A model generated the notes under the pieces. That model was not told the origin of the DNA, ran no database searches, and saw nothing but the letters and a program-made list of their open reading frames with translations. A program made the position numbers and the translations under genes. Shown here in pieces: positions 1-63,503 of a stretch of 64,000 bases of DNA. The DNA lies in assembly GCA_020632215.1 (NCBI GenBank), contig JACKFZ010000005.1:21128-85127 (forward strand), in the 5' to 3' direction. The stretch is from Candidatus Nomurabacteria bacterium (GTDB lineage: Bacteria > Patescibacteriota > Minisyncoccia > Phycocordibacterales > JAACPR01). Position 1 is the first letter of the stretch; each line of letters starts with the position of its first letter.

Positions 1-1117
1 GAAATACTGCTACTTTTATCGGTGCTAATTTTGGATCAAGTTTCAAAACTACACGAGTTTCGCCATCCATTTCGTCTTCATGATAAGCATCGGAGATAAC
101 AGCCAAGAATAAACGACCAAGACCAACTGAAGTTTCCAAAATCCAAGGAATATACTTTTCATTTTTCTCTTGGTCAAAGTACCTCAAATCTTGTCCGGAA
201 AATTCCATATGCTGAGTTAAGTCGTAATCTGTACGATCGTGGATACCTTCTAGTTCATCAAAACCAAGAGATGGAAAGTTATATTCAATATCCCAGGCAT
301 CTTTTGCATAAAAAACTAGATTTTCATGTTGTTTCCACCTAAGATTTTCTTCCTTAATACCAATAGACTTGTACCAATCCCATCTGTCTTGCTTAATCTT
401 TTCGTAAGCTTCTTTGTTTTCATCTGGTCGAACAAAATATTGTGTATCAGCTTGTTCAAGTTCTCTTGTTCTAAACAGAAAACTTCTTGGTGAAATTTCG
501 TTTCTAAAAGCTTTACCTATCTGAGCAATACCAAATGGAATTTTTGGTTGCATGGTATCTACAATATTTTTAAAATTTAAATAAATTCCCTGACAGGCTT
601 CCCCAGGAAGGTAAACGGGCTCTTCTCCATCAGAAGTAAAATCTCCCAAATTAGATTTTACTAAAAGATTGAAAGCTTTTGCTTCAGTAAAATTCTTCTT
701 ACCACATTTAGGACAAGATATATTATTTCTATTCTCATCAAATAACTTATTTATTTCCTCTTCCGACATTTTTTCATCAGCAGTAACACCTACTTTTGCT
801 AGCTCTTTATCGACTCGAATACGAGCATTACATTCTTTACACTCGGCAAGAGGATCGGAGAATCCTCCAATATGCCCGCTAGCTTCCCAGACTTTTGGAT
901 GTTTAAACATACCAGAATCGATACCAAAATAATTTTCTTTGTCGTAGACATTAGCATTCCACCAAGCTTGCTTTATGTTATTCAAAAGCTCAACACCTCT
1001 GGGTCCAAAATCATAAATACCAGCCAATCCACCATATATCTCAGATCCTTGATAAATAAAGCCTCTCCTTTTGGCCAAGGAGACTATTTTTTCCATCTTA
1101 TCTTCGTTTTTTGACAT
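1..1117 (-). CDS. glyQS: glycyl-tRNA synthetase, alpha2 (archaeal/eukaryote-like) type, N-terminal part (gene runs off window start)
   Basis: Own translation of the minus strand from ATG at 1117: MSKNEDKMEKIVSLAKRRGFIYQGSEIYGGLAGIYDFGPRGVELLNNIKQAWW..., a canonical class II GlyRS N-terminus. Not in the ORF track because it is truncated by the window edge. Confidence 0.75.
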   Translation of the reverse strand, partial: MSKNEDKMEKIVSLAKRRGFIYQGSEIYGGLAGIYDFGPRGVELLNNIKQAWWNANVYDKENYFGIDSGMFKHPKVWEASGHIGGFSDPLAECKECNARIRVDKELAKVGVTADEKMSEEEINKLFDENRNNISCPKCGKKNFTEAKAFNLLVKSNLGDFTSDGEEPVYLPGEACQGIYLNFKNIVDTMQPKIPFGIAQIGKAFRNEISPRSFLFRTRELEQADTQYFVRPDENKEAYEKIKQDRWDWYKSIGIKEENLRWKQHENLVFYAKDAWDIEYNFPSLGFDELEGIHDRTDYDLTQHMEFSGQDLRYFDQEKNEKYIPWILETSVGLGRLFLAVISDAYHEDEMDGETRVVLKLDPKLAPIKVAVF

Positions 1118-1282
1118 AGAAACAGAATATCACTAAGTTAGTAAAAGTTCAAAACCACGTAGCAATTAGATGTCAGATGTCAGCTGTCAGCGATCAGCTA
1201 TTAGAGAGTTAGATTTGACACAAAAGCTAATTGATTGTAAATTATTTGAGAACCCTAATTTTAACTTAGCCCTTTTCATAAA

Positions 1283-1597
1283 ATGGAAATGACGCTCGAC
1301 CAATTCGTCCTGATCTTCGCACTATGTGTTGCCGTTTTTCAATTCGGAGGATTCTTCTTGGCCTTCCAAGCACAAAAAACAAAAGTTCTGTTTTTTAGAA
1401 TCGCCTACTTCATTTGGTCGATTGCTTCGTTCTGTATTGCATCAACTCTTGCAATCCAAGCAATCAATATATTTGAGGGAAAAGAAACCACCCTCAAAGA
1501 GTTTTTCCAGATGCTAATTGCGGGGCTCATTATAGCAATCCTGTTCCTCTGGGGCTCATCTTGTCAAAAAAAGACAAGTGCATCTTTAATTGACTGA
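1283..1597 (+). CDS. small membrane protein, hypothetical
   Basis: 104-aa ORF with three hydrophobic helices; TGA stop; followed by the terminator hairpin at 1605-1660. Confidence 0.4.
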   Translation: MEMTLDQFVLIFALCVAVFQFGGFFLAFQAQKTKVLFFRIAYFIWSIASFCIASTLAIQAINIFEGKETTLKEFFQMLIAGLIIAILFLWGSSCQKKTSASLID

Positions 1598-1779
1598 ACT
1601 CAAGCAGCCGCGCGCGCGGACCGGCCTTACCCGTCGGTCCCACTTCTTTTATTTATATTAGTTTTTAGTGCCTAGTGGTTAGTTTATAGTTTTCAGGTAA
1701 TAGAATAAATAATTGACAGAAAAAATGGTTAAGGTAAGTTAATGAAGAACCCCGCACTGTAACTTCAGCTCTTAAAAAG

Positions 1780-2280
1780 ATGAGTGATTGGATAATAATC
1801 AATATCATGGTTTTTGGCCCCATGATGGTCTTCTTGCTTGCGGCACTTGTCTGTAAGCACAAAATGATCAAGGGAAGTACACAATGGAACATTGGCATGA
1901 CAGTTTGTGCTATTTTACTGCTATGTCTTTCATTCTTCCCGTGGCTCCTGGCCCAAGTGAAATACTCCCAAAATCCAGACTGTATGTCTCTGGCAATACT
2001 GACTTATGCCTTGTTTGTCATAGGGCTAACGAAAGCAAAAGAAAGTATCAGAGAATTTGCAGGAATTTTCGGGATAAATTCAATACGGCCGGAAAGTATC
2101 GGCAACTTTCTGATTTCTTTCAGCAAAAGCCTGACAATGTTCACACTGAGTGCAACCATGTGGCAAGCATCAATGAGTCCATCGAGTTTCTCTTTTTCCA
2201 TCTCGATAATGGCAGCAGCGATACTCTACTGGATATCGGCCAAAATGACACACTTCCTGTTGTCTCACGACCTGATATGA
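1780..2280 (+). CDS. membrane protein, hypothetical
   Basis: 166-aa ORF with multiple TM segments; followed by a duplicated copy of the same terminator module (2300-2345). Confidence 0.4.
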   Translation: MSDWIIINIMVFGPMMVFLLAALVCKHKMIKGSTQWNIGMTVCAILLLCLSFFPWLLAQVKYSQNPDCMSLAILTYALFVIGLTKAKESIREFAGIFGINSIRPESIGNFLISFSKSLTMFTLSATMWQASMSPSSFSFSISIMAAAILYWISAKMTHFLLSHDLI

Positions 2281-2460
2281 GACTTTCAACCTTCTCTCAC
2301 CTGTTGTGGACCGGCCCCATTCGTCGGTCCCACTTCTTTTTATTTATATTAGTTTCTAGTGCTCAGCTATTAGCTGTCAGCGGTCAGAAAGTTAGGTCAC
2401 TTATATAAAAACTAACCTCTGATATCTGATGTCTGATGTCTAATGTCTGATGTCTAATTA

Positions 2461-4383
2461 CTACTCCACCACCTGACTCGTTTCATTAGCACTATTACCA
2501 TATAGTTCTGTTGTAACGTCCTCTGCGACAGTCTCTATATTTCTATCTATGAAAGTATCAAGTGCTGCAAACCTCACATTACTAACCAACACTGGTGCAC
2601 CACCAATTTGACTAGCACTAGGGGTTAAGCCGACTTGGAAACTAACTTTCCTTGTTGGCAAAGTATATCCTGCAAAAGCCGAAACATCACCAAGTTTCCA
2701 CTCAATAATTCGAGAGATTGGATCATAATTGATAGTCTCTCCGCCACCAGTGACAATATTTTTCCACTTAACATAATTTGGCAGACTAGCAGTCAAAACT
2801 CCGTTAGATAAATTATTAGATGTATTATCTAGTTCCAAATCTATTGTGTAAGTTGTCTCTTGATCAACCTTTGGGGGAATAGGTCCAGAATCAGAGGATA
2901 ATCTGGTAGAAAAAGCTTGTAAGTCGATATCAGACACAAATCTAACTCTACTGAAACTTGTAGATTGGACTTCTTCTTGGACTTCTGTTTCCGAAGTTCG
3001 TAGACCGGAAGAGGTAATATTCATAGTAATTTCTGGATTTTTAAAGACAGTACTCCCAGATGCCAAAGGTTTTGTCTGAAAAGTAAAAGCCAAAACACCT
3101 GTATCGCCCGCTTGTATTTCTGTCAGATCTCCTTTAGTACTCTTGTCCCATAAGATAGTATTGTCAGTTGAGCGGTAAAATCCATCAGAAACACGAACGG
3201 AATTTTTATCTAAAACATCACCGTTAAAACTCAAGACTACTTTAGCATTACTAATATTTGAATTTGTATTATTGGCATATCTCAACTCAGCTTGAACAAG
3301 TTGATTGCCTTGCTTCACCACTTCCCCGTCAGTATTTCCGTCGAGAGAAAGACGAACATCAAAGAATGGTCGACTAATCGTCACAGACTTAGGTATAGTG
3401 GTAAAAACAATTCCAATATTATCTTTTACTTCTTCATCTCGAATTCCTGTAGTAAATTTAAAAACTCTCTCCTCTTTGTCCTGACCGAGCAACCTTCCTC
3501 TAATCTGGAATCTTTGTGTTTCTTTTGGTTTCAAAACTTCAAAAAACCATTTGTTATCTCCGGTATAAGGGTCTCTTGTTGTACTCTCTACCTCAAAGCC
3601 AAATGGATATACGGCTTCTAACATCACATTTTGTAAAATTTGATTTGAATTAGAACTAACAGAAACATCAAAAACTAACTCTTGCCCAGCGTTTACTTCT
3701 TTAACATTATCAACTAACAGTCGAATTGGTGAGGATTGCAGGACAACATCAAAAGTTTTTTTCTTTTCAAAAATCGCATTAGATTCAGGTAATCGATATT
3801 CGACAGAAACAATTATTTCTTTATCTTCTCCCTCTTCCCCGAACAGTGCTGCGGCATATGTTCTCTTCACAACAGTTCCAGGTTCTAGGTTACCTAATCC
3901 TTCCCTGATACGAGGTAAATCTGTTCTCAAGTCATCAGCCTGTTTTGTACCATCAGGGTATTCAATGACCAGATCAACTGTTTGAATAACGCCAGCATTA
4001 CTATTTTGCACAACAATGTCTAAGGTCAATTCTTCACCACCACCAATAGAAACTGGTCCTATGACATTGATGTCCACATCATTTCCCGCTACATTCGATG
4101 TTCCATTCAAAAAATTAAAGAACCCATAAACAGCTGCTCCGATGAAAAATAAAAAAGCTATAACAGCAAATACAATGAACCAATTCAATCTCTTCTTCGG
4201 CTTATACTCTGAAATCATTGTGTTCAAATCTCCGTCATCCCAACTTTCATTGGCAGCATACCCTTTTGGTTTCAAATCTTTCCTCGGCTTAAGACCAGCA
4301 TATTTGCTTGGAGAATATAGATTGTCCTGAACTTTCTCCAACTTTGTTCTATCATCTCTATTTGGTGGTGTAATATCTTGCAT
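2461..4383 (-). CDS. large membrane-anchored extracytoplasmic protein, hypothetical
   Basis: ORF track 2461..4443. The first 20 codons overlap a perfect palindrome/terminator; the likely start is MQDITPP at 4383. One TM helix near residue 90, then a roughly 550-aa Ser/Thr/Asn-rich ectodomain. Confidence 0.5.
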   Translation of the reverse strand: MQDITPPNRDDRTKLEKVQDNLYSPSKYAGLKPRKDLKPKGYAANESWDDGDLNTMISEYKPKKRLNWFIVFAVIAFLFFIGAAVYGFFNFLNGTSNVAGNDVDINVIGPVSIGGGEELTLDIVVQNSNAGVIQTVDLVIEYPDGTKQADDLRTDLPRIREGLGNLEPGTVVKRTYAAALFGEEGEDKEIIVSVEYRLPESNAIFEKKKTFDVVLQSSPIRLLVDNVKEVNAGQELVFDVSVSSNSNQILQNVMLEAVYPFGFEVESTTRDPYTGDNKWFFEVLKPKETQRFQIRGRLLGQDKEERVFKFTTGIRDEEVKDNIGIVFTTIPKSVTISRPFFDVRLSLDGNTDGEVVKQGNQLVQAELRYANNTNSNISNAKVVLSFNGDVLDKNSVRVSDGFYRSTDNTILWDKSTKGDLTEIQAGDTGVLAFTFQTKPLASGSTVFKNPEITMNITSSGLRTSETEVQEEVQSTSFSRVRFVSDIDLQAFSTRLSSDSGPIPPKVDQETTYTIDLELDNTSNNLSNGVLTASLPNYVKWKNIVTGGGETINYDPISRIIEWKLGDVSAFAGYTLPTRKVSFQVGLTPSASQIGGAPVLVSNVRFAALDTFIDRNIETVAEDVTTELYGNSANETSQVVE

Positions 4384-4442
4384 TGAAAATATTATATCAG
4401 AAAAAACCCGTCGACCTGCCACGTCGACGTGGCAGGTCGACA

Positions 4443-5030
4443 TTAAAGCTGACTCTCCTTCAATGCTCTATTGATTTCAGAGAGAACTACTTTTCTGCTT
4501 CTTTTTATTTCTTCAATGTGCTCATTTTTCATAGAATTGTCCAGAATAAAAAATTGTAAGTCTTTGTGATCACCTACATATCCAAGATTATTCAAAATCC
4601 TTAAAACCAAAACACATTCAATATCTTTTATTTGATCATCGAATAAATGATCTTTTTCTAAAAATAAAATAGCGTTATTCAAAATATCGAAAAGGTGTTC
4701 GTTTTTCTCTTCTCCGTTAATGAGTCTTCCCAATAGAGAAAATATTCTGGCTACTAATCTAAATCTTTGATCAGAACCTAATTGGTAATAAATATTTGAA
4801 AGAGAATATGCATTAGTTATGCGCCAACCTGTTTTTCCAAACACTAAGGCAATATTTGCCAGAGAATATTTTTGCAAAGCAAATCTAAGTTTCGACTTTT
4901 CAAATCTAATACCTTGGGCAGAAGCATAAATCAGTCCAAAATCTTTAGTAAATAAAACAAAAGTTTTGCCTGCCTCACCATTCGGCCGTTCATCTAAAAC
5001 ATATGCATCTGTGTGATATATAGTATGCAT
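4443..5030 (-). CDS. recO: DNA repair protein RecO-like
   Basis: N-terminal OB-fold pattern DAYVLDERPNGEAGKTFVLFTKDFGLIYASAQGIRFEKSKL...LANIALVFGKTGWRITNA matches the RecO family. Confidence 0.55.
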   Translation of the reverse strand: MHTIYHTDAYVLDERPNGEAGKTFVLFTKDFGLIYASAQGIRFEKSKLRFALQKYSLANIALVFGKTGWRITNAYSLSNIYYQLGSDQRFRLVARIFSLLGRLINGEEKNEHLFDILNNAILFLEKDHLFDDQIKDIECVLVLRILNNLGYVGDHKDLQFFILDNSMKNEHIEEIKRSRKVVLSEINRALKESQL

Positions 5031-5138
5031 GGTTACCTGTCATCCCAGATTCTAAACCAGAACTTTAGTCAAAAATATATGCTTAAAGTTGTTCGGTTTT
5101 CCAGACTCCGCCTAAGGCGGATCTGGAATGACCTTTTA

Positions 5139-8100
5139 TTATTTTACAATACTAATCTTCACTTCTCCAAAACTTAGACCAACTACTTCTCCATCTTCAT
5201 CAATAAATTTAAATTCTGAAATACCAGCTGTACTTTCTATCTCTTTTCTAAACATGTGAATCAAATGTTCTGCTGATTTTGAAATAGTCAAAGTAATTTT
5301 GTCACTTGGCTTCAAATTCATATTTTTTCTCAGACTTTGGATAGAACGAATAAGCTCCCGAGAATCTCCTTCGTTTTTCAAATCTTCGGTAATATTTGTA
5401 TCTAGTTCAACTTTTTTGTCTAACCCAATATCATAATTTACTTCCTTAACATTGACTTCATCTTTTATAAGATCAATTAGGCTAGCTTCGTAATGAGATA
5501 TCTTCACGTTAGTCTTCATAGACTGAAGTGGTTGTCGAACTTTTATACCAGCCTTTGTCCTAGCTTCCAAAGCAATACTGATGAGGTCTCTAATTTCATA
5601 CATTCTCTGTATTAAAGATTGATCAAAACTAGATTTTTTACCAAATAATTTTGCAAAAAATGAAACACTTTGAACTTGTGGCCAATCTTCTAAGTGAACA
5701 CTTTCTTTTCTACCTCCAATTCTCTGATAAACATCTTCTGCAAGATAAGGAGTAAAAGGTGCCATTATTTTTGACAGTTCTATCAAAACAAATTTCATTG
5801 TTTTCAACGCATTTTCCTTATCACCATCTTCCTTAAATCTATCTCTAGATCTTCTAACATACCAAGTAGAAAGATCATCGATAAAATCCAAGATTGGTCT
5901 CTCTGCCCTATCAAGTTTGTATGCTTCCATATTTTCTGTCACTTCTGCAATTGTCTGAGACAATTTAGCTAAAATCCATTTATCTAAAATATTTTCTGAT
6001 TGACTTGAACCTTCTACTTTCTTATCGGCATAAAGTTTATAGAAGGAGACAACGTTTCTTAAACGTAAAATTATTTTTTTATAAATTTCATCAACTCCTT
6101 TTTCTGAAAAATTTAAGTCTTCTGATTGAACTACTGGTGAAGAAAGCAAATAATATCTTTCTGCATCAACACCATATTTATCAAAAATTAACCAAGGGTC
6201 TGGAAAATTGTTTTTTGATTTTGACATCTTTGATCCATCTTCGGCCAAAATATTCCCTGTTGTCACCACATTTTCAAATGGAACATTGTCAAATAGTATG
6301 GCTGAAAGAATATGTGTGTAATAAAACCATGTTCTTGTCTGAGCAATATACTCAGCTACAAACTGTGCTGGGAAATTTCTTTTGAAATTTTCTTTATTTT
6401 CAAAAGGATAATGTTTTTGTGCAAAAGGCATTGATCCAGACTCAACCCAACAATCAATAACTTCAGAGATTCTAGTAAACTTTTTGTCATTCTCTTCAAA
6501 AGTAATGTCGTCAATATATGGTCGGTGAAAATCTAATTCGTAATTATCGTTATGTGGAATTGTCGCGAAATCATATTTTTCGTAATATCCAGGAACAACG
6601 ACTTCTCCTATTTTTTTTCTCATAGAAACAGTATCTGTAATATCTAAACCATTTTGCATAGCCTTTAACATCCAGACACAATATTCGTGAGTAATGATAA
6701 GAATATTTTTTGCTTGATATTTTTTATCTATTTCATAAATAAAATCGCCACATCTTTTCCTCAAATCCAAAATAGACTCTCCACCTTTTGATGGTTTAGT
6801 CATTTTTTCTTCCAATGATGCGAATTGTTCTCGATATTCTTTGCCTAATTTACCATTAAAATTACCAGCTTGAATCTCTTTTATTCTGTCATCTACTAAA
6901 ACATTACTTTTATCCAAACCTAAGCCCTTAGCTACAATGTCTGCAGTTTGTGTTGTTCTATCCAACGGCGAAGTGATGATCAAATCAATATTTTGATTTT
7001 TGAAAAACTCTATTGAATTTCTGACTTCCTCTTTTCCTTTTTCTGTTAAATCACTTTTGACATCATTAGTTGAACAGACAAAATCATCAACATTGCTTTG
7101 TGCTTCACCATGTCGCATGACGAAATATTTGTTTGTGCTTTTTGTTTTTTCTTTTAATTCATCCAAAGATCCGAGAACTTTTAATTCCATTCCATCTTCA
7201 GATTTCCAAAAAGGCAAAGGTGACGCCCAATATCTATTTCTAGAAATGTTCCAATCTGGTGCACTTTCCATACTTTTTTTGAATCTTCCTTCTTTCAAAT
7301 GTTCTGGCACCCAATTGATCTTATTGTTCAAATCCAAAGCTCTTTGTTTAACACTTTGAATATTTATAAACCAAGCAGAAAGTGCGTTATAGAAAAGAGG
7401 AGTCTCACATCTAAAACAATGGGGGTAGGAGTGAATTATTTTTTCTTTTGAAAAAAGCTTCCCTCTATGTGCTAGATTTTTAATAATCTCGATATCTGTT
7501 GATTGGTGAAAATCTTTTTGTTCTGGTGTTGATTTTGGCTTTACTTTGATACCTGCAAACTCTGTCACTTTGTCTATAAAAGTGCCGTTTTGAGCAACAT
7601 GATAGATCAAAGGTAAATTAACCTTTTTTGCTAAAACCATATCTTCTTCACCATACACTGGTGCAAGATGGACAATTCCAGTTCCCTGCTCTGTGGTGAC
7701 ATAATCCGCATTCCATATTTTCCAAATATTTTCTTTATTCTTCAATGGAACATCTTTGAAGTAGTCAAAAACGGGCAAATAACTTTTACCGATCAGATCT
7801 TCTGTATTAACTTTTTCTCCATTAACATCTTCTTTAAAAACTTTTTCAGCTAAATCTTTAGCGACAATATATTTCCCATCTTCTCTAATAACTTGTATAT
7901 ATTCCAAATCTTTATTTATGGCAGCCGCCACATTTCCTGGTAAAGTCCACGGAGTGGTTGTCCAAGCAAGTAAATATGTTTTCAGTTCACTTGCCCCGTT
8001 TGACGCAGTCGTCGAAGACGACTTTTCGTCATTTACGGGGTCAATAAGTTCAAGCTTAACAGTGACAGAAATATCGGTTATGTCTTTGTAACTGTTGTCC

Positions 8101-35881: not shown

Positions 35882-36064
35882 ATTTTTATAAAAAAACTCC
35901 AACGGACCCGAAGGCTGGCTGGAGCGTGTATACCTACAATACTACACATTAACAACAAAAAGTCAATTGCAGGATATACACTTTTTATTACCTGATAGAT
36001 AGTTCTGATTTTAACTCCCATTAGAATACTCAAATTGGTATTGAAAAACAAAGCTGATTTAGCT

Positions 36065-36286
36065 GGGTCCTTATCGGGATTCGGTCACAAATCACTAAGC
36101 ATAATTCTTCACTCCCCTGAAATAAATTCAGGGTCGCTCGAATTCTGCCAAGTGTTCGCGACCCCGACTCGCCGACAAGCATTTTTGCTACGCAAAAATC
36201 TTGTATACCGGCTCCGTCTTTCGAATCCCGCTAAGGCCTCCAAAAATATGTTTCGCAAACGCTACGCATTTGCTTCAGTATTTTTG
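36065..36286 (-). repeat. tRNA-3'-linked conserved structured module (His copy): terminator, antisense tRNA 3' end, covarying hairpin, conserved core, direct repeat of tRNA-His 3' end
   Basis: Shares GTGTTCGCGACCCCGACTCG (36152..36173), TTCGAAAGACGGAGCC and GAAGAATTATGCTTAGTGATTTGTGAC with copies at 39170..39364, 45716..45915 and 52480..52626. 36065..36084 repeats the tRNA-His 3' 20 nt. Confidence 0.6.
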
Positions 36287-36359
36287 GGTCCTTATCGGGA
36301 TTCGAACCCGAACTGAGGGTTCCACAAACCCTAGTGCTAACCATTACACCATAAGGACC
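36287..36359 (-). tRNA. tRNA-His (anticodon GTG) with G-1 and C73
   Basis: Manual fold: G-1, acceptor GTCCTTA/TAAGGAC, D-arm GTGT-AATGGTTA-GCAC, anticodon loop TTGTGGA, T-arm TCGGG-TTCGAAT-CCCGA. Confidence 0.8.
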
Positions 36360-36651
36360 ATAATGTGATGAGAATACTACTAATTGTTGACTAAAAAGTC
36401 TAGGACTTTTTTAAAATAGGTTCGTGCAATTCCCTCCCTGTTTGGGTGGGCCCGCCCAACTGAATGACCTGCCAGAATGAATCTGTCGGGCTGGCTTCAG
36501 TCATTCGGGCGGGGGCTTACCGCTTGCTATTTTTATTATAAAAAAACTATTCTCAAAAAACATATAAAAAGAATTAAAATCTTTTTAAATTAAAGGTAAA
36601 TTTTTATAAAAATTATTAGAAACTTTTTAGTATAACTTTATAAATTATTCA

Positions 36652-39139: not shown

Positions 39140-39169
39140 AATCTGATTATAACAGAAAATGTAATCAAT

Positions 39170-39364
39170 GGTGCACAAGAGAGGACTTGGTCACAAGTTT
39201 CTAAATTCGTCCTCGATTTCTCTCGGACTCATTAAGAACTTTCGACCCCGGCTCGCCCATCCCAGTTGCTTCGCAACAGGGACCCTAGGGCTCCGCCTTT
39301 CAAGTCCTCTATGTTTACTAAAATAAAGTCGCCGACTCCTGCGGAGCCGACTCTTTTATTTTAT
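39170..39364 (-). repeat. tRNA-3'-linked conserved structured module (Leu copy)
   Basis: Minus-strand read after tRNA-Leu: ataaaataaaagagtcggctccgcaggagtcggcgactttattttag / taaacatagaggacttgaaaggcggagcc / ctagggtccctgttgcgaagcaactgggat / gggcgagccggggtcgaaag... / ttgtgac + caagtcctctcttgtgcacca. Confidence 0.6.
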
Positions 39365-39448
39365 GTGCACAAGAGAGGACTTGAACCTCCACGCCCATAA
39401 GGGCACACCCACCTCAAGGGTGCGCGTCTACCAATTCCGCCACTCATG
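39365..39448 (-). tRNA. tRNA-Leu (anticodon GAG)
   Basis: Manual fold: acceptor GCATGAG/CTTGTGC (two G-U pairs), D-region TGGCGGAATTGGTAGACGCG as in bacterial tRNA-Leu, anticodon stem CACCC/GGGTG with loop TTGAGGT, long variable arm, T-arm GGAGG-TTCAAGT-CCTCT. Confidence 0.8.
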
Positions 39449-39549
39449 CAAGTGAATTTATCCAAACCAACAATTTGTTTTAATCCAAAGACAAGACGCT
39501 TTGTTATTATCTAAATAATTATTTATTTTTACAAGCAAAATAGAAGTTA

Positions 39550-40059: not shown

Positions 40060-40715
40060 AATTAATATTGTAGGCAGTAGGTTAACATATGGCTTTAATA
40101 AAGGCAATAGATAAAAAGAGGTTGGGGTCGCCTGATGGACCCCTCCAGAAAGGGAGCATGCTCTTTTCGTGTTATTTATTTTGATTACCCCCATCTGTTG
40201 ATTTCGGCTTTTTCTTTTTCCGGCCAATTTGACCATGGTATTTCCCACCAGGTAAACTTTTGTCAGGATTGTGGTTACCACCCCTAACCTTTGGCGGTCT
40301 TTCGTGTCGTGATTTTTTCATAAAGTTTCCTTTCTTTCGACTCCACTATTTCTATAACACTCGTAAGAATTAAAGCAAGAGATAAAAAAAGAAGCGCCTC
40401 GTGTTTCGGAGTGGGCGCTCTTTCCTCCCTTAAAATTCACTTCTTGGTTTTGGGGCCTTTTTGCATGGCTTGGTTTTTTTCTTGTTTCGCAGCTCGTTTG
40501 GCAGCAGCCCTCTTCAGACGCTCCTGCCTTTTTTTGCATCCCGATCTTCCGTCCTTTGCCATCAGGAATATGCCTTCCTAGGTTAGGGTTAATTTCTGTT
40601 TCTATACTGCACTTTATACTTTTATAGTTTTATTGTAAAGCCGATGTTCTAGAACGTAGTATCTGGTACGCAGAATTTATGTTTCTTCATTTTTCTACAT
40701 TCTACATACTAAATT

Positions 40716-45576: not shown

Positions 45577-45643
45577 CTTCATCAAAACAACAAGGCACTT
45601 CTAAGTGCAGTAAGTAATGTTGTCTTGAGAAGTTATGCTATCC

Positions 45644-45715
45644 GCTCCCGTAGTTCAATGGATAGAACAGGGGACTTCTAAGCCTCTGATGTAGGTTCGA
45701 TTCCTGCCGGGAGCA
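45644..45715 (+). tRNA. tRNA-Arg (anticodon TCT)
   Basis: Acceptor GCTCCCG/CGGGAGC, anticodon loop CTTCTAA, T-loop TTCGATT. Confidence 0.8.
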
Positions 45716-45915
45716 CAAAAAAACAATGAGTCGGACACGAAGTGTATGGAAATTTGTTTTTAGTGCTATCCGCAGGAATCGAAAGGCGGAAACAAAAAGT
45801 CTGGAGGAACGAAGACTTTTTGTTGAGCCGGGGTCGCGAGCACTTAGTATAATTCGAGCTGAGAGCGAAGAATTATACTTAGTGACTTGTGACCGATTCC
45901 TGCCGGGAGCACCAA
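45716..45915 (+). repeat. tRNA-3'-linked conserved structured module (Arg copy)
   Basis: A-rich terminator; tgctatccgcaggaatcgaaaggcggaaac (antisense of the tRNA-Arg 3' end); a hairpin; gagccggggtcgcgagcacttagtataattcgagctgagagcgaagaattatacttagtgacttgtgac; then cgattcctgccgggagcacca (tRNA 3' end + CCA). Confidence 0.6.
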
Positions 45916-46263
45916 TTAATTTGTAGTTTCCTCTACATTCCCTATGGGTTCACTTGGTGTTACAACACTTTGAACTTTAACTTTCAAGGTTTTTTGTTCA
46001 ATTAACGGACCGGTAACCTCTCTTATCTCCCCCGCACTTAATGTTCGACTAGAGACAACACCTTGAACACTTTTGTTTATTTCTTCATTCAGACTTAAGT
46101 ATGTTTTTGTAGCGAAAATCATAAGACCAATACCAACAATAGCCACAATAAATAATATCATTAACCAATCAAAAGAAATTGAGATTCCACTAATGGCCAA
46201 AGTAGTTTTTCTTGTTTCGTGATATCGTCTACTATAGTCTTTGTATTTTTCAAAAATTTTCAT
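45916..46263 (-). CDS. small membrane-anchored protein in a pilMNO-like cluster (PilP-like?)
   Basis: 115 aa, one TM segment; context only. Confidence 0.3.
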   Translation of the reverse strand: MKIFEKYKDYSRRYHETRKTTLAISGISISFDWLMILFIVAIVGIGLMIFATKTYLSLNEEINKSVQGVVSSRTLSAGEIREVTGPLIEQKTLKVKVQSVVTPSEPIGNVEETTN

Positions 46264-52299: not shown

Positions 52300-52479
52300 T
52301 ATAGAATCATAATTCTAAATCTTAACAAAACCCTAAAGGTCTAGTTTCATGCCACGATTTTTACTTAATATACCCATATTACCAATTAAGAGTTTTTTAG
52401 TCACTACAGGACACACGGATCACACAAATACTAAATTCTTACTGCGGGGCATTTTTTACACAAAAATTTGAGATTATAA

Positions 52480-52626
52480 AATACAAAGTGTTCGCGACCC
52501 CGACTCGGCCATCCCACGTAGAAGGCTACGCCTTCTACGTGGGACCCTGGGCCTCCGTCTTTCGAATCCCCTCCTCCTGTAAAATAAAAGTCGGACAACG
52601 CTTCGCGTTGCCCTCCTTTATTTTAT
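52480..52626 (-). repeat. tRNA-3'-linked conserved structured module (Ser copy; no terminal direct repeat seen)
   Basis: cataaaataaaggagggcaacgcgaagcgttgtccgacttttattttac / aggaggaggggattcgaaagacggaggcc / cagggtcccacgtagaaggcgtagccttctacgtgggat / ggccgagtcggggtcgcgaacactttg. Confidence 0.55.
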
Positions 52627-63359: not shown

Positions 63360-63439
63360 TTTTGAATACTATCTCATGTTGTCTAAATTAATTATAAATA
63401 AGTTCTAAACTAGATGGTCACATAAAGTTCGTTGCAAAA

Positions 63440-63503
63440 CAACTCACCACGTGACTAAAATAAAAGTCACCGACTCCTGCGGAGCCGGTTCCTTTATTTT
63501 ATG
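63440..63503 (-). terminator. A/T-flanked GC hairpin module after tRNA-Lys, near-identical to the one after tRNA-Leu
   Basis: aaagtcaccgactcctgcggagccggttcctttattttatg vs aaagtcgccgactcctgcggagccgactcttttattttatg (39327..39367). Confidence 0.6.

Follow-up and report, generated by a model that had tools for sequence, protein, structure and literature searches.

The window analysed here is a stretch of 64,000 nucleotides of Candidatus Nomurabacteria bacterium (assembly GCA_020632215.1, contig JACKFZ010000005.1, positions 21,128 to 85,127 of the forward strand). ARAGORN calls seven tRNA genes in this window; behind three of them, on the same strand, the 3' part of the gene is present a second time. 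These copies form the outer ends of structured modules behind the genes for tRNA-Leu(GAG), tRNA-Arg(TCT) and tRNA-His; a degenerate module lies behind tRNA-Ser(TGA) and a remnant behind tRNA-Lys. The modules are non-coding elements of ∼150–200 nt that apparently constitute a widespread, undescribed family in Patescibacteria (the candidate phyla radiation; CPR) and Elusimicrobia. The window otherwise encodes ordinary CPR housekeeping genes. Its tRNA genes with modules, and the parts of these modules, are listed below (an L followed by a number denotes a genome locus used for comparison).

39365–39449, minus strand: tRNA-Leu(GAG), the last 19 nt of which (39365–39383) are the proximal repeat (ARAGORN, Rfam tRNA, repeat search)
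39319–39364, minus strand: A-run, GC hairpin and T-run of the Leu module, terminator-like and element-borne (inverted repeat; homologous to the Lys and Ser hairpins)
39299–39318, minus strand: antisense arm of the Leu module (..ACATAGAGGACTTGAA; inverted repeats, fold)
39189–39301, minus strand: three-way-junction core of the Leu module (GAAAGGCGGAG – P2 – GAGCCGGGGUCG – P3 – GUGACC; motif, covariance model)
39170–39189, minus strand: distal repeat of the Leu module, tRNA positions 56–73, ending in CCA (repeat search, L202)
45644–45716, plus strand: tRNA-Arg(TCT), with the proximal repeat at 45698–45719 (ARAGORN, Rfam, repeat search)
45717–45759, plus strand: A-run, weak hairpin and T-run spacer of the Arg module (inverted repeat of 32 nt, 81%; alignment)
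45760–45781, plus strand: antisense arm of the Arg module, TTAGTGCTATCCGCAGGAATCG (inverted repeat with 45894–45915, 22 nt, 82%)
45779–45894, plus strand: three-way-junction core of the Arg module (covariance model 45757–45918, 89.3 bits; fold)
45894–45915, plus strand: distal repeat of the Arg module, with a CCA end (repeat search)
36286–36358, minus strand: tRNA-His, with the proximal repeat at 36285–36304 (ARAGORN, repeat search)
36083–36284, minus strand: His module, with spacer hairpin 36247–36284, antisense arm 36220–36245 and core 36083–36222 (inverted repeats)
36064–36083, minus strand: distal repeat of the His module, 20 nt, without a CCA end (repeat search)
52394–52626, minus strand: degenerate module behind tRNA-Ser(TGA) (covariance model, 32.6 bits)
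63416–63502, minus strand: remnant behind tRNA-Lys, a Leu-like hairpin plus a short GTCAC..GTGACC stub of P3 with the core deleted (alignment)

The Leu repeat is exact over 19 nt (39171–39189 and 39365–39383; CAAGTCCTCTCTTGTGCAC on the minus strand). Its copies diverge after the discriminator base, where the gene reads ..A-CAT and the distal copy ..A-CCA (39172–39170). The Arg-TCT repeat spans 22 nt (45698–45719 and 45894–45915) with one mismatch, which turns A-CAA in the gene into A-CCA in the distal copy. For His, 20 nt are repeated exactly (36064–36083 and 36285–36304), followed through C73-CAA in the gene and C73-CAG in the distal copy, so that neither carries CCA. The left edge of the repeat is always C56 of the T-loop, fused to the last C of a conserved GUGACC, and the window repeats thus run for 19–22 nt from C56 to the tRNA 3' end. 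Exact matches of 19–20 nt within ∼200 nt place them beyond chance. Behind tRNA-Ser(TGA) no repeat of the tRNA end was found, and the arm of this module (GGAGGAGGGGATTCGAA) is not complementary to tRNA-Ser(TGA). At the Arg locus the 10-mer TGCTATCCGC is present twice, at 45636–45645 (from the leader into the first two bases of the tRNA-Arg(TCT) gene) and at 45764–45773 (antisense arm), a duplication that could be due to chance (about 5%) or could reflect past conversion involving the acceptor 5' region and the arm.

A previous interpretation of this DNA, made from its letters and referred to here as the sequence-only reading, described the modules as carrying direct repeats of the tRNA 3' end. 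This is borne out for Leu, Arg-TCT and His and fails for the degenerate, non-cognate Ser module, so that its four cognate versions reduce to three. The CCA end that it attributed to the repeats is seen in Leu and Arg-TCT, two of the four modules, and is missing from His and Ser. The Leu CAT/CCA difference is present again in L202, assembled independently from the same strain (99.97% identical), and is therefore not the sequencing noise that had been considered. A cargo of ∼200 bp without an open reading frame (ORF) had also been described, correctly as far as we can tell: the only ORF of at least 90 amino acids that overlaps any of the four modules has 93 amino acids and a TTG start, lies on the opposite strand across the His module (36035–36316) and is taken as spurious.

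On the tRNA strand, the order of parts is the tRNA, an A-run/hairpin/T-run, the antisense arm, GAAAGRCGGAG, P2, GAGYCGGGGUCG, P3 and the distal repeat. P2 is a variable hairpin and P3 is a long hairpin that ends in YGUGACC. The arm covers the 3' half of the T-loop, the 3' strand of the T-stem and, imperfectly, the 3' strand of the acceptor stem; the Leu arm likewise can pair with the 3' strand of the T-loop and T-stem and, in part, with that of the acceptor stem. RNAfold predicts one three-way junction that is common to all window modules, with the arm and the distal repeat forming the closing helix P1. The core motif GAGYCGGGGTCGMRA is found four times in the window versus 0.09 expected. The signal from TTGTGACC was discarded, as its over-representation (nine sites versus 1.45 expected in the window) includes six extra sites that fall in coding sequence.

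The hairpin next to the tRNA behaves differently from the tRNA-derived parts. The Leu, Lys and Ser hairpins have CATAAAATAAARGA...GACTTTTATTTTA in common, and across the five window loci the hairpin region aligns and is homologous throughout. Leu and Lys have near-identical stems, with tRNA-derived parts that are unlike. Occupied orthologous sites have such a hairpin and the empty orthologs L174, L159 and L154 do not. Because the hairpins are alike across loci and absent at empty orthologs, the hairpin is element-borne and the arm and distal repeat are locus-specific. In the Ser module the hairpin is homologous to those of Leu and Lys, the arm is non-cognate, P3 is decayed and the distal repeat is absent.

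With one gapped core pattern at least 120 genome loci were retrieved. Among the matches listed, all of those with low GC content belong to Patescibacteria (Saccharibacteria, Paceibacteria, Kaiser-, Yonath-, Nomura- and Taylorbacteria, and others) or Elusimicrobia; GC-rich matches lie in coding sequence and were rejected as chance. A MAFFT alignment of 64 modules, on which the figures for invariance, pairing and covariation are based, contains ∼25 invariant columns. In the proposed structure 87.9% of the cells pair, compared with 69% after shuffling, and the covariation score is 0.518, compared with 0.19 after shuffling and 0.09–0.13 when the partners are slid. RNAalifold independently recovers P2 and P3, and 14 of the 21 pairs show compensatory changes. 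Pair R30:Y81 alternates between A-U and G-C with a single G-U. The P3 pair G89·U148 is G·U in all 64 sequences, another P3 pair is split between G-C (27) and G-U (26), and in the stems G·U is far commoner than A·C. The invariant G·U and the G-C/G-U split in P3 mean that the fold exists only in the tRNA-sense strand in its single-stranded form, whether RNA or single-stranded DNA (ssDNA). The ∼130 nt interior of the module is thus a three-way junction that is conserved with covariation and shared by two phyla, and this is the main point that the picture of a bare ∼200 bp cargo had overlooked.

The covariance model built for the modules (R1) was used to scan the window and the loci. In the window it finds exactly four modules, three at ∼88 bits (including Leu at 39165–39325 with 87.9 bits and His at 36059–36246 with 87.8 bits) and Ser at 33 bits; the tRNA-Lys remnant gives no match. 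In an alignment of 117 sequences, the 12 column pairs with the highest mutual information all lie within helices, and a search of the same 117 sequences for pseudoknots by mutual information gave nothing beyond the nested helices. Searches of the window and six loci against Rfam 15, at the gathering threshold and at E values up to 1–10, matched tRNA models only. The motif was not found in the literature searched, where the nearest paper describes group I introns in the anticodon loops of Patescibacteria tRNAs (PMC13011429).

The modules are closely tied to tRNA and transfer-messenger RNA (tmRNA) genes. Of 161 matches to the covariance model, 129 lie directly behind such a gene: 123 are at most 260 nt behind a tRNA on the same strand (median gap 41 nt) and six are behind a tmRNA gene called by ARAGORN, again on the same strand. 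Four further matches follow another module, 13 are cut by the end of the locus and 15 are orphans. At least 28 anticodons are represented among the module-bearing tRNAs. In a sample anchored on the L19 gene, which was not chosen for modules, 27 of the 131 tRNA genes carry one. Several of the orphans are explained as products of later insertions between the tRNA and its module. In L022 putative nested IS3-family transposase ORFs, read by eye, lie between tRNA-Ser and its module (1270–3793), and the intervening 2.7 kb is taken as a secondary insertion. An unrelated 5 kb block separates tRNA-Gln from its module in L001 (∼350–5400), where among nine ORFs Pfam matched only a periplasmic binding protein, and in the orphan of L062 2 kb and a decayed module intervene. 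The spacer between tRNA and module seems to be a landing pad for other insertions.

A separate feature concerns the tRNA genes themselves. In 204 of 309 tRNA genes from the CPR and Elusimicrobia loci the discriminator is directly followed by CA rather than CCA (CAA in 128); 54 of the 309 encode CCA, and position 74 is C in 95%. Six of the seven window tRNAs follow the N73-CA pattern (36286, 39365, 45716, 52627, 54312 and 63503) and only tRNA-Val encodes CCA. The pattern looks like a conserved processing signal.

Comparison of related genomes provides evidence of gain and loss. The arrangement of L19 and tRNA-Leu(GAG) is kept in relatives with 64–83% L19 identity. The tRNA site behind L19 is occupied in L146, L166, L165, L180, L184, L197 and the window and is empty in ∼30 loci; orthologous sites are thus not uniformly occupied, the outcome that the sequence-only reading had named as contrary to insertion. 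The occupied L166 and the empty L174 have their downstream flank in common. In the empty L154 a gene starts directly after the tRNA, at the place where L184 has the hairpin, the module and the repeat. The near-identical contigs L189 and L182 carry one module and two modules in tandem, respectively. Arrays are common, with at least three identical units in L106 and three dissimilar units, two of them decayed, in L053. Degenerate copies are seen in the Ser module and Lys remnant of the window and in L062 and L053. Empty and occupied orthologous sites, the difference in copy number, the arrays and the element-borne hairpin all agree with the earlier proposal that the repeats mark inserted material, and the window repeats are a true signature of the insertion type. 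The assemblies closest to the window (same strain, 99.97% identical) show no polymorphism for the presence or absence of modules. Two independent short-read assemblies of the window strain, L202 and L203 (window 45574–36460 and 45525–39249), end at tRNA genes or in the Leu module, which suggests that module repeats can break assemblies.

The two target-derived segments were compared with the tRNA throughout the family. Over tRNA positions 64–73, the distal copy agrees on average at 7.9 of 10 positions (28 of 64 are perfect) and the reverse-complemented arm at 6.6 of 10; evidently, both were exact copies at first. Young-looking copies are perfect palindromes that run through the hairpin. In L071 the palindrome arms are ∼40 bp when read from the sequence and 29 nt in an automated search (Watson–Crick, at most one mismatch) that halted at a bulge. 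The arm is the Watson–Crick complement of the 3' strand and not a copy of the tRNA 5' strand: opposite G64 the Arg arm carries C, and the tRNA itself carries U50 there. At differences between the two sense copies, the arm agrees with the tRNA 24 times and with the distal copy four times, and pairing beyond ∼7 bp is therefore not kept by compensation. G·U and A·C oppositions number 24 and 21 between arm and tRNA, and 26 and 11 between arm and distal copy. The repeat is ∼6 to 37+ nt long with one edge fixed, and most often stops at the tRNA end (mode 17–21 nt); some repeats extend through the trailer and hairpin (37 nt in L035 and at least 54 nt in L106).

The CCA difference does not extend to the family. 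Of 41 scorable distal copies, ten end in CCA, close to the frequency among tRNA genes without a module (44 of 206; 21%), so that CCA is not diagnostic of a mature tRNA as the template and this part of the sequence-only reading has to be abandoned. A gene without CCA combined with a distal copy with CCA is seen in six cases and the reverse in three. Among 31 empty tRNA-Leu orthologs, four encode CCA.

Subtypes of the module recur. A variant subfamily (L180, L197, L165 and L182/L189) has the core GAGUCCGGGGAGGAAG..CUUGACCCC, and its arm pairs with the last tRNA bases and the trailer and not with the T-arm; some of these modules carry an additional hairpin P0 (loop AACUGCUU) 5' of the arm. In the window modules and the 64-module alignment P2 and P3 fall into recurrent subtypes, such as GGUAUACAAG..CUUGUCGCC, CCAGGGUCCC..GGGAUGG and tandem-GA GAGCGACGGCGAG loops. 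These are mosaic within one genome, with Leu and Ser having the same P2 and Arg and His the same P3, which suggests recombination between modules.

No partner enzyme was found in the sets that were searched. ORFs within 2.5 kb of 87 modules cluster into housekeeping families only (such as HU, ClpB, SmpB, FtsH and IF2). Neither there nor among the window proteins examined is there a transposase, or an integrase, reverse transcriptase or TnpB, the last three being the kinds of gene that the sequence-only reading had left to be checked. This fits its view that a simple miniature inverted-repeat transposable element (MITE) moved by a single integrase is a poor explanation. Ten unassigned window ORFs gave Pfam matches to helicase, SIMPL, amidase and similar families and none to a recombinase, reverse transcriptase or TnpB. 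No module is present in the viral contigs or in the records of phages and plasmids; one match there is a chance hit in a GC-rich coding region without a BLAST match.

We favour, with a probability of about one half, the reading that each module is the integrated copy of a small insertion element, non-coding and non-autonomous, that resides at the 3' ends of tRNA and tmRNA genes and combines a folded single-strand recognition core with a target-derived repeat and arm. The insertion unit would consist of the A-run/hairpin/T-run, an arm antisense to positions ∼57–73, the three-way junction and a sense copy of positions 56–73 or beyond. The junction fold would be recognised by an enzyme acting in trans or by the nucleic acid itself. 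In a single-stranded or circular form, helix P1 of arm and sense copy would be a duplex replica of the segment from the T-loop to the 3' end, and this replica would recombine with the chromosomal tRNA gene at C56/G57, equivalent to the P3/P1 junction between GUGACC and GAWUCC. The tRNA would thereby gain an element-supplied 3' end and a terminator, and its original 3' end would be displaced to the far side, following the logic of attL and attR. A single strand exchange between the folded circle and the tRNA gene would be sufficient to give the observed order. After insertion the ∼7 bp of P1 and the junction would stay conserved and the remainder of the tRNA-derived segments would decay, and recombination between the repeats would lead to tandem arrays or to clean deletion of the element.

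Several observations do not sit easily with such an element. The searched sets yielded no recombinase, HUH nuclease, reverse transcriptase or transposase, and the enzyme is therefore hypothetical. Some 30 near-invariant nucleotides across two phyla are unusual for a passive DNA site, and the excess of G·U between arm and distal copy (26 versus 11) hints at weak selection at the RNA level. In some variants (L065 and L053) the P0 hairpin splits the antisense arm, which simple copying does not explain. A tRNA end that is carried in also needs a pre-adapted lineage, yet the Leu and Lys hairpins are near-identical with different tRNA-derived parts; therefore fast retargeting or gene conversion between modules is needed, and the P2/P3 mosaics of the window hint at the latter. 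As a tentative and rather unlikely variant, the module may represent a novel type of mobile, structured nucleic acid, a three-way-junction RNA or ssDNA of ∼130 nt that base-pairs with the T-loop-to-3'-end segment of any tRNA or tmRNA and inserts itself, in a ribozyme-like manner or with a universal host enzyme, templating the inverted and direct target copies. If true, the closing helix would be built from the target, and this would be a guide-programmable insertion system free of protein genes.

The favoured insertion element has features in common with several known systems. As in tyrosine-integrase islands and prophages in tRNA and tmRNA genes, a direct repeat begins in the T-loop and reaches at least the 3' end, a new 3' end would be provided by the element, genes for tmRNA are among the targets, and tandem arrays and empty and occupied sites are seen. 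Unlike these islands, the module is only ∼200 nt and gene-free with no integrase in the neighbourhoods and window proteins examined, contains an inverted copy of the same tRNA segment and a covarying single-strand fold, and hits dozens of tRNA species within one lineage. The likeness to the attC sites of integrons and attP(+) of CTX phage lies in conservation of structure rather than duplex sequence, on one strand only, and in a hairpin that rebuilds the target duplex, from which a single strand exchange would give the observed order. A strand-specific fold of this type is indeed present, as the G·U pairs of the stems show, and P1 is composed of the arm and the copy of the tRNA segment. However, attC and CTX attP are simple or forked hairpins with little sequence conservation that are used by IntI or XerCD, whereas the module forms a three-way junction in which ∼30 nucleotides are near-invariant, and no enzyme is known for it.

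With MITEs, REPINs and the palindromic elements of IS200/IS605, the modules have in common that they are short, non-coding, multi-copy, intergenic, hairpin-rich, decaying and, in the proposed mechanism, mobilised in trans. They differ in having no terminal inverted repeats of their own sequence and no fixed short target duplication; their conservation spans phyla with covariation and their flanks are target-derived over 17–37 nt. A MITE was rejected, since the inverted segment is a copy of the target and not a terminus, the repeat varies from 6 to 37+ nt and no related transposase is present near the 87 modules or among the window ORFs examined. The topology of a closing stem with two hairpins resembles a retron, but no reverse transcriptase was found within 2.5 kb of the 87 modules or among the window ORFs examined. 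For the ω-RNA of IS200/IS605 the order of scaffold followed by flank holds; there is no tnpA, tnpB or iscB near the 87 modules and no Rfam match, and a guide that is equal to an intact tRNA gene would be self-targeting.

Among the rival explanations, a functional tRNA-linked RNA is unlikely. Here the module would be transcribed with or after the tRNA, and a mimic of the tRNA 'top half' with an N73-C(C)A tail would be fused to the junction domain; it might serve in processing or quality control, as a decoy or as a scaffold for proteins. The strand-specific fold, the G·U pairs and the tandem G·A motifs are typical of RNA, the junction is near-invariant across two phyla, and the G·U excess over A·C between arm and distal copy points the same way. 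Moreover, the arm is the complement of the 3' strand, so that P1 mimics the acceptor and T stems, and the hairpin of the P0 variants sits precisely between positions 65 and 66, which is also the arrangement of a tRNA. The tRNA-like domains of tmRNA and Y RNA (YrlA) are likewise acceptor/T-stem-like helices fused to another conserved domain, and the base of P3 (GGUCG/UGACC with a G·U) loosely recalls the Ro-binding helix. Against such a role, the distribution is patchy, with most orthologous tRNA-Leu sites empty and 21% of tRNA genes occupied, and pseudo-copies and arrays are frequent. A terminator-like hairpin separates the tRNA from the module and no promoter stands out. Unlike the domains of tmRNA and YrlA, the mimic is cognate to the upstream tRNA, and its acceptor-like helix is not kept by compensatory changes; Rfam offers no matching family, and this holds for tmRNA, Y RNA and tRNA-like structures too. 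A retroelement of the type of a short interspersed nuclear element, into which a reverse transcriptase encoded elsewhere would copy tRNA ends, is improbable. Its arm would be a primer-binding site for the cognate tRNA, or its tRNA-like 3' end would prime itself. A retroviral primer-binding site spans about the same ∼17–21 nt as the module arm, and both this site and the Neurospora Mauriceville retroplasmid offer parallels, the former in an arm of ∼18 nt complementary to a tRNA 3' end and the latter in a tRNA-like 3' end. The arm of unit 2 in L053 has TGG opposite CCA, self-priming from the distal copy would rebuild the palindrome and yield arrays, and a variable repeat length with one fixed edge is as expected of target-primed insertion. 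The host here is bacterial, however, arms usually lack the TGG complement of CCA, distal copies are not enriched in CCA and no reverse transcriptase is found near the 87 modules or among the window proteins examined; group II introns are reported to be absent from Patescibacteria (PMC13011429).

The architecture could also have arisen without dedicated machinery: replication would switch templates at the terminator hairpin and at the shared T-loop box (TTCGAATCC / GGATTCGAA), and gene conversion would later act between modules. Perfect palindromes centred on the hairpin, microhomologies of 7–9 nt at both junctions, the P2/P3 mosaic among modules of one genome and the repeats that run through trailer and hairpin in L035 and L106 are all of the kind this process would leave. 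We nevertheless regard it as doubtful, for three or four ordered switches would be needed, hundreds of times over, most repeats end at the tRNA end, and the purifying selection on the junction across phyla is left unexplained. Least probable is a self-splicing T-loop intron, in which the real tRNA would consist of positions 1–56 and the distal copy. The boundaries between C56 and G57 and between GUGACC and G57 are such that excision would restore a tRNA, and the T-loop of tmRNA is a known site of group I introns (PMC13011429). Mobile group I and II introns in tRNA genes have further traits in common with the modules, namely a conserved, catalytic-looking core, covarying stems, a patchy distribution, tRNA and tmRNA targets and a guide-like arm capable of pairing with the flank. 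In contrast to these introns, the module does not interrupt a gene, is far smaller, matches neither group I nor group II in Rfam and duplicates part of its target. An intact tRNA is always present upstream of it, distal copies decay freely, and 960 hybrid constructs in which upstream T-loop-like sites of orphan modules were joined to the distal copy gave no tRNA. A group I intron was rejected on the intact upstream tRNA, the negative hybrid test and the absence of a match to RF00028 at E values up to 1–10.

Two further features of the window were noted. A GC-rich structured island (36405–36535, plus strand) stands in an AT-rich spacer upstream of tRNA-His and consists of a long hairpin followed by a terminator-like stem and a T-run; its fold z-score is −2.85, Rfam gave no match for it, and it is a candidate for a small RNA that has escaped annotation. 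By eye, two tiny, highly basic ORFs (∼40190–40320 and ∼40440–40570, minus strand) are located between the L19 and pseudouridine synthase genes.

The motif is abundant, occurring at about one fifth of the tRNA genes in relatives of the window and at four of seven in the window itself, and in genomes of under 1 Mb the modules take up a noticeable share of the sequence. Programs that call tRNA genes and genomic islands could be misled by the displaced tRNA ends. If the insertion chemistry is guided by RNA or ssDNA, it would represent a new principle of programmable integration; if the module is a functional RNA, the least understood of the bacterial radiations would have a new ribonucleoprotein linked to its tRNAs.

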